A stretch of 64,000 bases of DNA from Promethearchaeota archaeon (GTDB taxonomy: Archaea > Asgardarchaeota > Lokiarchaeia > Sigyniarchaeales > SOKP01), in the NCBI GenBank assembly GCA_016840085.1, contig JAEOTA010000018.1, forward strand, positions 1 to 64,000. Reading direction: 5' to 3'. Of the stretch, positions 8,885-16,392 are shown piece after piece. Position numbers and translations under genes: made by a program. Below the pieces are notes generated by a model. The model made no database searches, was not told where the DNA came from, and saw only the letters and a list, made by a program, of their open reading frames with translations. The stretch's first letter is position 1. Each line of letters starts with the position of its first letter.

Positions 8885-9520
8885 TTACTCTTGAGTTAAG
8901 GACATCATTTTTTTTATGATTTTATTATATTGATCTCCAAAATCCTCAATGCTATCAACCATTTGTCGAAAATATTCCAACCATTTTATTTCCGCTTCAT
9001 TGTGAAATCTCCAATGTGCTAGAGGAAGTAGGTAGAAAGGACTTAGATCATAGAGAGGGCTAGATTTAACTAGTTTCTCCCCCTCATCAGCATGCTTGAA
9101 CATGTTTTTCCTCTCCTTAATTTGGTTATCTATGGAATCTAATATGAATTGTTTTCCCTTAACCGAACCAAAAAGCAGTATAAAAGGAGTTACAGCATCC
9201 ATATCAAAATAAATTTCTTGTACTTGATTAAGAAAAAAAGAAATCTGTTCTTGAAATTCCTTTTTGCCCCTGTTTAATAATTTATAGATAATTTGCTCGG
9301 GACGATTACCTTCTTGCTTAGATCCTACTTCTTTGATGAGTCCATCTCCTTCGAGTTGCTTTAATGCATAATAAAACGATGCATTTGTAGCTTTAATATA
9401 ATGATCATATCGCCATTCTTTTGCTAAAGAAATAAGTTCATAACCACTCATAGGTTTAGGAATTGTACTCATTACCCCCAATATGAATGATTTCAGTGGA
9501 GTATATCTTTTTTTTGGCAT
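8885..9520 (-). CDS. PadR family transcriptional regulator
   Basis: ILG....PMSGYEL...SFYYALKQLEGDGLI...GNRPEQIIYKL...GK; C-terminal amphipathic helix AEIKWL. Confidence 0.9.
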   Translation of the reverse strand: MPKKRYTPLKSFILGVMSTIPKPMSGYELISLAKEWRYDHYIKATNASFYYALKQLEGDGLIKEVGSKQEGNRPEQIIYKLLNRGKKEFQEQISFFLNQVQEIYFDMDAVTPFILLFGSVKGKQFILDSIDNQIKERKNMFKHADEGEKLVKSSPLYDLSPFYLLPLAHWRFHNEAEIKWLEYFRQMVDSIEDFGDQYNKIIKKMMSLTQE

Positions 9521-9577
9521 ATTTTCTCCTCAATTCCTTATATGTGCTTAAATAATTTTATTTTTTATTTTTTAAAA

Positions 9578-9621
9578 TAATCAAATTTGAATAGTTAAAT
9601 TTAAATATTCAACTTTAATTA
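9578..9621. promoter_or_regulatory. Pair of palindromic boxes (TAWTCAA-N2-TTRAWTA) between divergent padR and methyltransferase genes; putative PadR operators
   Basis: TAATCAA-AT-TTGAATA at 9578-9593 and TATTCAA-CT-TTAATTA at 9606-9621, with TTTAAATA between them. Confidence 0.55.
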
Positions 9622-9667
9622 TATTTAGTAACTCTCAATATATAAAATTTTGGGTGATGTTTGAAAA

Positions 9668-14079: not shown

Positions 14080-16392
14080 TTAGGTACGTTTATAAATAAA
14101 TCGTTCCCAACTTTTTCTGCTTGGCATTTCTAGAGGCATACCCTTCCTTTTGCGTATTTCCATGATTATTTCTTCTTCAAATGAAGCAGGGACACGAGAA
14201 AAACCTTCGAATTCATATCCGAAAAACGCTCTGCCTTGGGTTGATCCTCTAATGTCATCGGCGATCCCGATTGTTTCAGCAGCAGGAATCTGGCCTTGTA
14301 TTCGTACATATTCACCTTCAGGAATGACATTAGTAATTCTACCTCTTCGCTTGGTTATGATTGCAGTGACGCTTCCTTCAGTTCCTTGCGGTGTTTTTAT
14401 ATCTATTCTTTGGATTGGTTCATAAAGATGAGGATCTGCTTCCAGCATTGCTAGGGACATAGCTGAAAAAGCCATTCCTGCAATTTGCCCATATTGAGTA
14501 TGTCTTGGGTCTTCGTGCACTACTAAATCTGTGAAAACGATTTTGAATCCTGTTGCTGGTTCTTTTGCTATAATACAATCACCGAGCCAATCTCTAAAGG
14601 CAGCTGATAAATAAGACTTAACTCTATCAAATCGTTGTAACCCCGCAGCACCATTTACAAGTACGCTTCCATGGTATACATCCACTACACGTCTAGCTTC
14701 TTTTGCATCCCACCCAGCTTCTTCTCTTAGAATCATAGCTCTCTCCTTTTCATTTTGCAAATCATTAACTTTTCCAGTGTCTATTAAGTGTTCAGTAACT
14801 TCATCTAAGGGTTCGACATACAATAAAATTCGATTGTGAGTATTAGCTGATTTGGTATAAAATTCTCGACTCTTTTCTGTAATTTTTTCTCTATATATAA
14901 TAATTGGTTCTCCAATGTCGATTTGAACTTGTTTATTAATCCTTTTAGTCAAGATTTCTATTTGTAACGGATCAATTCCAGAAAGTATAAATTCTCCTGA
15001 CTCATCATCCCTCCTATATTCTGCTTCTGGGTTCGCTTTAAGCCATTTGCCTACTACATCATCTAATTTATCAATTTCATGTGGATCTTTTGGTTTGATA
15101 CTTCTTGACACGACAGCTTCACACGCATATTGAATTTTTTCGAAGGGGTGTAACAATGTCCTTTCTTCTCTATTCTTAGGAACTTTGTTTGTCAGCATAA
15201 ATGTTTCACCAGCGGGGCATACAAATCCAAATAATGCAAATAAGTTCCCTGCAGGTATCTTGGGGATATCTAAAATATCAGTTATTTCCATAACACCGAG
15301 CCTTTTCACTCGATTGCTTGAATCACTATTAATTAAATAAATAGAATCTGTTTGATCAAATGTACCAGAAAAAACACGACCTATAAGGGTGGCTTGAAAA
15401 TTTCTTTTAGGGTCTAAAAAGATCTTAGTAATCATCCCAAAAAGTGGCCCATTTGGGTCACTTCTCTGCAAAGATTGACCTAATTCTGAGTTCAAATCAC
15501 CGCCCCAGATATGTGGGATTCGATATTTAGACGCACTAACGGGATCTGGAAGATGGTCAACAATCATTCTTAACATAGGTTCATCTAAGGGTAAATTATC
15601 CCTTAGCCATTGAATATCTCCTTCATTATATTTCGCAAAGACATCTTGAGGTTTAAGATTTTTCTCAAGTAAAATCTCATAAGTAAACCCCCATCCATGT
15701 TTAGCTGAACCTACAGCTACAGAATTCTTTACAAAATCAATTCCCCAATCCGATCCTTCTGGTCTAACCTTTTTAATTAATTCATTTACTTCTCTTGTAA
15801 TTTTATCTATTTTAGCAAAGGTTTCTTGAGGGCTAAGTTTTAATTCACTTATTAGTCTATCAACCTTATTGATAAAAAGAACTGGTTTGCAGTATTCTTC
15901 ACCAACGGACAATCTAATATTTGTCTCAGTTTGAGTCATAACTCCTTCAAGAGCGTCTACTAAAATTATAGCACCATCACTGCCCCTAAGTGCTCTTGAT
16001 ACTTCTCCTGTAAAACTTATATGACCGGGAGTGTCGTTAAGTTGAATAATATAGGGTTCCTCATCTTTTGGTTTTCTAGAATCTTGAAACGCCAGGAGTA
16101 CTACAGTTGTAAATATCGTGATGCCGCGTTCTTGCTCCTCATCTTTCAGTATATTAAGTATGCCTTAATCTAAATCTGAATCGGTCATTTGGAGCTGCCC
16201 AGCATCTTCTGGTCGCATTAATCCCGCTCTACGGAGCAAATAATCAGTAGCAGTAGTTTTTCCATGGTCAATTTACGCTATAATAAGGAAAACTCAATAT
16301 AGATGCGCAGTTATGGAAAAAATTCGCTTCTTTTCATATGATCCAGAGGTCACGAGTTTGGCGATTTCATCTGGGTTCTTTACTTTAACCAC
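14080..16392 (-). CDS. fusA: Translation elongation factor 2 family GTPase (probably the divergent Asgard EF-2 paralog); spliced CDS join(16303..16392,16174..16272,14080..16143), ~750 aa
   Basis: GTG start at 16392 after AAGTGA. After removing two 30-nt inserts it reads MVKVKNPDEIAKLV...SITAH/IDHGKTT...MTDSD/DEEQERGITIF...NDTPGHISF...NKVDR...GSA...HEDPRH...RGSTQGRA. The ORF track only captured 14080-15939. Confidence 0.93.
16144..16173 (-). other. 30-nt BHB-type intron 2 in EF-2 mRNA (switch I, upstream of RGITI)
   Basis: Sense strand: TCAG AT^T TAGATTAAG GCATA CTTAATATA CTGA AA^G. Perfect 4-bp helix UCAG/CUGA, two 3-nt bulges, in-frame TAA. Removal gives TCA GAT GAT GAG (SDDE). Confidence 0.88.
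16273..16302 (-). other. 30-nt BHB-type intron 1 in EF-2 mRNA (inside the G1/P-loop)
   Basis: Sense strand: GCGC AT^C TATATTGAG TTTTC CTTATTATA GCGT AA^A. 4-bp helix GCGC/GCGU, two 3-nt bulges, in-frame TGA and TAA. Removal gives GCG CAT ATT GAC (AHID). Confidence 0.88.

Follow-up and report, generated by a model that had tools for sequence, protein, structure and literature searches.

Two predicted bulge-helix-bulge introns in the EF-2 gene of a Lokiarchaeon, with probable homing at one site and moderately supported shared ancestry

The window analysed here, a stretch of 64,000 nt, is contig C4 of a metagenome-assembled genome of Lokiarchaeia type (4.7 Mb, 29.5% GC). Its minus strand carries a gene for the translation factor aEF-2 at 16392-14080, in which two 30-nt inserts, read here as introns, interrupt the P-loop codons and the switch-I codons, respectively. 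The 30-mers lie at the minus-strand positions given for them in an earlier, sequence-only reading. The features of the locus, all on the minus strand, are the following.

16303 to 16392, minus strand: aEF-2 exon 1, GTG start at 16392, 30 codons, the last of which is the P-loop His of AHIDHGKTT
16257 to 16321, minus strand: predicted bulge-helix-bulge (BHB) motif 1, span closed by the outer exon-exon helix (16321-16313 with 16265-16257, 9 bp, z = -3.2)
16305 to 16308, minus strand: BHB motif 1, exon strand GCGC of the 4-bp central helix
16273 to 16302, minus strand: predicted intron 1, spliced position 90, 30 nt, phase 0, two in-frame stops; layout 1 nt, arm 16301-16293, loop 16292-16288, arm 16287-16279, guide 16278-16275, 2 nt
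16174 to 16272, minus strand: aEF-2 exon 2, 99 nt, 33 codons
16176 to 16179, minus strand: predicted BHB motif 2, exon strand TCAG of the central helix
16144 to 16173, minus strand: predicted intron 2, spliced position 189, 30 nt, phase 0, one in-frame stop; layout arm 16172-16164, loop 16163-16159, arm 16158-16150, guide 16149-16146
16123 to 16392, minus strand: mosaic 5' tract containing introns 1 and 2, from comparison with the closest relative, L032
14080 to 16143, minus strand: aEF-2 exon 3, 687 codons and stop

Excision of both 30-mers gives a single EF-2 frame of 750 aa that is colinear with intronless relatives and has AHIDHGKTT and ERGIT intact. This copy is the sole EF-2-like gene in the assembly. 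Its domain IV loop, HEDPRHTQ, retains the His, followed by Thr-Gln, and such an H-T-Q loop belongs to the canonical aEF-2 of Lokiarchaeota and not to the paralog (PMC6143161); identity as the paralog aEF-2p was rejected for this reason. As the only EF-2-like gene, with a canonical domain IV loop, it is very likely essential.

Both introns display the same geometry, a 4-bp central helix between two 3-nt bulges with the junctions after the second bulge base. The helix is formed by a 4-nt intron segment and an exon tetramer ending 2 nt before the junction (GCGC/GCGT for intron 1, TCAG/CTGA for intron 2), as the sequence-only reading had noticed in describing a segment complementary to each insert's own upstream exon. 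The archaeal splicing endonuclease, EndA, acts on bulge-helix-bulge motifs and recognises shape and not sequence (PMC4090602). Because the exon-pairing segment is the central helix of such a motif, both inserts are very probably tRNA-type BHB introns in an mRNA, spliced by EndA and RtcB. The pre-mRNA would fold into the 4-bp exon-intron helix flanked by the two 3-nt bulges, an (alpha-beta)2 splicing endonuclease would cleave each bulge after its second base, and the exons would be joined by RtcB to restore full-length EF-2. The outer exon-exon helices are present but offset by internal loops; they are compatible with relaxed motifs and are stronger in intron alleles.

Comparison with about 190 EF-2 loci of relatives supports this assignment. 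The majority of these genes are intronless, and the inserts of the others occupy five spliced positions (90, 96, 103, 183 and 189), all within P-loop or switch-I codons and all five with exact BHB geometry. Four other distinct variants are known at site 90 and 19 distinct variants in relatives at site 189. Across 28 EF-2 variants, pairing holds in 95% of cells and 12 of 13 pairs show compensatory change, against 33-46% in slid controls. The exon tetramer GCGC occurs in 5/5 site-90 intron alleles vs 13/125 intronless ones (Fisher 3e-5), and TCAG in 25/25 site-189 intron alleles vs 48/105 (Fisher 1e-7); the pairing tetramers of intron alleles are fixed at synonymous positions. Every one of 28 phase-0 inserts contains a stop codon, and read-through is excluded because variants of 29 and 31 nt also exist among EF-2 introns. 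An Rfam search returned no match.

It is very unlikely that the inserts are not spliced but represent ribosome hopping (T4 gene 60 or byp type), miniature DNA elements similar to IS200/IS605, or assembly errors. Bypass elements do resemble small hairpins with early stops, and in 13 of 29 contexts the codon preceding the stop is a synonym of the codon that opens the following exon. Only 1/29, however, has take-off and landing codons that match in the byp arrangement, on which ground a translational bypass element was rejected, while the other bypass arrangement fails in 16 contexts and would add one residue. The 2-nt offset helix is kept at all EF-2 sites, no Y1 transposase was found, and the same inserts recur in dozens of independent assemblies. 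As for the splicing machinery, an RtcB gene is present in this genome. Two EndA subunits occur in 12/12 genus relatives, whereas in this assembly a structural-type subunit was found and the catalytic one was not. An assembly gap is likely, as aEF-2p, which most relatives have, is missing from the assembly as well.

The distribution of the site-189 intron among relatives points to lateral spread. On the EF-2 tree it takes 19 changes for 22 rows, no fewer than with shuffled labels, and gain and loss are indistinguishable by these counts. Hosts that are about 20% apart carry an identical intron (L109 and L024/L027). When intron alleles are compared with their nearest intronless relatives, excess divergence covers nt 0-210 and ends sharply just past the intron, with P about 1e-5, a value that is overstated because kin rows are not independent. 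In this genome, the comparison with L032 gives 40 mismatches in 210 exon nt, followed by 16 over a further 390 nt. Intron carriers do not come together in a tree built from the first 176 nt, on which the intron takes 20 changes, the same as with the 3' part, and no single donor tract is thus shown. A gene for a free-standing LAGLIDADG endonuclease, intact or decayed, lies directly upstream of EF-2 in 6/22 site-189 carriers vs 0/101 others, and nuclease-first look-ups found the intron in every close-homolog locus whose contig reaches EF-2. No nuclease lies beside EF-2 in the 64-kb window, and none was seen within about 1.2 kb at the other four site-90 carriers; a search of 61 genomes for the nuclease gave no matches at E<=1e-40 and was uninformative.

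From these sequence comparisons, the site-189 intron probably spreads by collaborative homing with the upstream LAGLIDADG, with intron 1 as a passenger. The free-standing nuclease would cut intronless EF-2 alleles near codon 63, and repair would copy the nuclease gene together with the EF-2 5' end and the intron; with the intron in place, the site would be protected. The nuclease may afterwards decay or be replaced, as in this genome, and intron 1, inside the same tract, could ride along with intron 2. Copying by reverse splicing, which had been offered as an example of how one intron might have reached a second site, found no support; the spread that can be detected is homing at the DNA level with an adjoining endonuclease.

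The interval from cca to EF-2 is a hot spot of variable genes. An HNH gene (L107:2-1090) precedes one double-intron allele of EF-2 and a GIY-YIG gene (L132:3-1172) precedes one intronless allele. At another locus (L239:608-2161), a distant homolog of the EF-2-linked LAGLIDADG lies upstream of a phosphofructokinase gene that is split in its GGDDT motif by a 30-nt hairpin at about 2563-2592. One reverse-transcriptase gene was seen elsewhere in this genome (C74:13766-14365, a 487-aa open frame), and no link to the introns was found.

Introns 1 and 2 are identical at 19 of 30 positions (63%), with arms matching at 7/9 and 8/9, i.e. 15/18, exactly as first counted. Likeness of at least 19/30 has P = 9e-4 against pair-preserving hairpin shuffles, and so exceeds chance on the test that the sequence-only reading had proposed, and P = 5e-3 against 471 genomic BHB-like 30-mers. 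Real introns were regarded as a better null than either. Eleven further introns of this genome (nine mRNA, two tRNA) were validated, each with the help of paralogs, Pfam or a conserved motif that could be recognised; against a profile of real mini-introns of this genome, arms of at least 15/18 have P = 0.003. Arms of the validated introns match at a mean of 6.0/18 and a maximum of 12, and the EF-2 pair ranks first of 78 pairs. With relatives included, 17 sites form 136 site pairs, among which EF-2 183/189 (13.7) and 90/189 (12.1) are the top two, while the 130 pairs not within EF-2 average 5.8 +/- 2.4. The 90/189 mean equals the within-site mean of the AMP-phosphorylase intron and is 11.8/18 when the alleles of this genome are left out. 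The likeness exceeds that of unrelated introns of the same class by a modest margin.

Several features that had been taken as signs of kinship are no evidence of it. The guide complementarity is the central helix that any BHB intron requires. The 1+9+5+9+4+2 layout is common to other 30-nt introns of this genome, a tRNA-Pro intron included. The shared final AA is not distinctive either; an A at position -2 occurs in 15/17 introns. Insertion after AT holds in only 4/17. The match of 15/18 is itself inflated by two private changes in this genome, because the site consensuses for 90 and 189 match at 13/18 (P about 0.02). Shared ancestry of the introns at sites 90 and 189 is thus moderately supported, with the second rank of 136 in its favour and the consensus match of just 13/18 against it.

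The preferred account is that introns 1 and 2, together with an intron of relatives 6 nt upstream of the second site, descend from one hairpin that on rare occasions was copied to a new position close by within the gene; its 4-nt guide would later have been re-adapted by selection for splicing. This is moderately probable. A direct copy from 189 to 90 would form only 2 of 4 pairs in the new central helix and would therefore need an intermediate or a second chromosome copy.

Less probable, yet a serious possibility, is that separate BHB introns arose independently and are alike because the sequence space of AT-rich 30-nt hairpins with a G-C closing pair is limited, with two GC-to-TA changes in this genome adding to the match. 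The generic layout and -2 A fit such independent origins, as does the modest consensus match. An AMP-phosphorylase variant has drifted to 14-15/18 likeness with EF-2 variants, purA and rpoN introns match at 12/18, and sites 96 and 103 of the same gene hold introns that look unrelated. Copying between sites is also rare in Asgard tRNA introns (1.5% vs 28% in Thermoproteales; 10.64898/2026.10.13.758758). Against this reading, the two highest of the 136 site-pair means both lie within EF-2, the second of them at 12.1, or 11.8 without the alleles of this genome, and the best cross-site pair reaches 19/23 with the loop included.

It is unlikely that the neighbouring introns arose separately and that ectopic gene conversion between them later homogenised the hairpin while leaving the guides untouched. 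The pair in this genome is the closest in arms of all 95 cross-site pairs, and in each of its two alleles one stem mismatch brings the sequence closer to the other allele. Both private changes are nevertheless common GC-to-TA substitutions, and the likeness persists in alleles from single-intron genomes (11.8/18). The further suggestion that all introns are held to one protein-recognised sequence consensus is largely refuted. There is a weak class-wide bias (T or A-rich arms, a G-C closing pair, T at loop position 4), but the eleven other validated introns have the same shape with other sequences (mean 6/18), the pattern of the sequence-only reading matches just these two EF-2 introns at 0-1 mismatch, and EndA, as noted, reads shape.

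One-hairpin descent with later guide adaptation has a clearer case in the relatives than 90/189. Sites 183 and 189 lie 6 nt apart with the exon targets ACAG and TCAG and carry the same hairpin. The site-183 intron of L136 keeps the site-189 guide CTGA, with 3/4 pairs, whereas that of L103 has the adapted guide CTGT. The best cross-site identities are 22/30 (90 vs 189) and 23/30 (183 vs 189), and the threshold of 80% identity used for introns at different sites in Thermoproteales is not reached. The proposal of a retargeted segment thus holds for 183 and 189 in relatives, although the segment itself is a generic BHB helix. Taken as a whole, BHB introns with homing at site 189 and rare local copying form the best explanation, one judged reasonably probable.

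The proposed mini-intron family extends to further EF-2 sites in relatives and has no clear members beyond that gene. A covariance model, which scored only 67 candidates per genome, and patterns were run over 101-135 genomes; they found the EF-2 sites and no convincing member outside EF-2. The weak outside matches, a tRNA D-arm intron and an AMP-phosphorylase variant, are both explicable by chance. The site-90 and site-189 consensus patterns gave EF-2 and chance matches only in 135 family genomes, and no intron was found in 30 loci of the Rab gene adjoining EF-2. Three other matches to the earlier consensus in the window are not introns; they include one that is antisense to uvrA and a palindrome at 9614-9648. 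The palindrome is AT-rich, lies between divergent genes (8888-9529 on the minus strand, PadR-like by eye, and one at 9665 on the plus strand) and is a possible operator.

An unfiltered genome-wide BHB scan gave a flat background and was unusable, so candidates needed validation by a paralog, Pfam or a conserved motif; C82, C88b, C88c and C47 were dropped as family support was absent. Nine more BHB-type inserts of 30-32 nt were seen in protein genes of this genome, mostly in conserved motifs. They lie at C88:-2612, C6:-14028, C24:+30582, C24:-121207, C9:-138240, C78:-56854, C49:-147258, C85:+142251 and in rpoN on C69; the genes concerned are nitronate monooxygenase-like, acyl-CoA synthetase, Rab GTPase, Fe-S subunit, AMP phosphorylase, ThiF/E1, purA, rps3 and rpoN. 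The AMP-phosphorylase intron, in the DKHSTGG motif, is present in 9/30 family loci (L317-L346) at 29-31 nt, with compensatory changes and guides that follow the exon tetramer. In L315 and L316, a multi-intron tRNA gene has a 30-nt D-arm intron with the target tetramer and guide of EF-2 site 189 and a hairpin weakly similar to it (8-10/18). Only about 23 tRNA genes were seen in the assembly despite 98.8% marker completeness, and many of its tRNAs have non-canonical introns that ARAGORN misreads.

The closest known counterpart in a protein gene is the BHB intron of cbf5 pre-mRNA in Desulfurococcales and Sulfolobales (Watanabe 2002; Yokobori 2009, PMC2738675). Like the EF-2 introns, it is short, lies in a catalytic motif, is cut after the second bulge base and belongs to a lineage with an (alpha-beta)2-type enzyme. 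EF-2 differs in that a single essential translation factor carries two introns, relatives have five sites, the host is an Asgard archaeon and lateral spread has probably been repeated, where cbf5 shows one gain and some losses; splicing has been demonstrated for cbf5 and is predicted for EF-2. In the literature that could be searched, cbf5 is the only coding sequence for which EndA splicing is described, and a single Haloferax 5' UTR is the one further mRNA case (PMC7714728). In Thermoproteales, tRNA introns have been transposed, and similar intron sequences occupy several positions, in each case with a BHB helix that fits the site (Fujishima 2010, reviewed in PMC4090602); those are families of at least 80% identity in tRNA genes, whereas here the sites are protein-coding, overall identity is 63% and the family is confined to one gene. 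Collaborative homing of a free-standing endonuclease and an ORF-less intron is described for T7-like phages and a cyanophage (PMC10448857), again with a nuclease beside an intron-bearing essential gene and a polar co-conversion tract ending near the intron. The EF-2 case instead involves an archaeal chromosome, a LAGLIDADG enzyme and a 30-nt intron, predicted from sequence to be protein-spliced, in place of a group I ribozyme. Published Asgard introns concern tRNA genes only, with no general arrival route or link to mobile elements (PMC11291895; bioRxiv 10.64898/2026.10.13.758758). They share BHB class and lineage with EF-2, and the tRNA-Pro intron here the same 30-nt layout, whereas the EF-2 site shows a probable arrival route. 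A literature search, with most subscription journals outside its reach, found no paper on Asgard protein-gene introns.

If the EF-2 introns are spliced, an essential translation factor depends twice on EndA splicing. New here are the essential host with five sites, the measured conversion tract and the half-adapted copy. There is also a practical consequence, as Asgard gene calls are truncated at such introns; EF-2 appears as pieces of 65 and 619 aa in public records. The 2026 census of Asgard tRNA introns leaves arrival open, and because the EF-2 locus supplies a nuclease, a target of 20-30 bp, a conversion tract and a half-adapted copy, intron arrival becomes directly testable. The full proposal, about as likely as not, is that a mobile 30-nt protein-spliced intron of Lokiarchaeia EF-2 homes by means of a free-standing LAGLIDADG and occasionally seeds sites in the same gene with a re-adapted guide. 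If true, a route by which introns are gained and slide would have been caught in the act, in protein genes of the lineage closest to eukaryotes.
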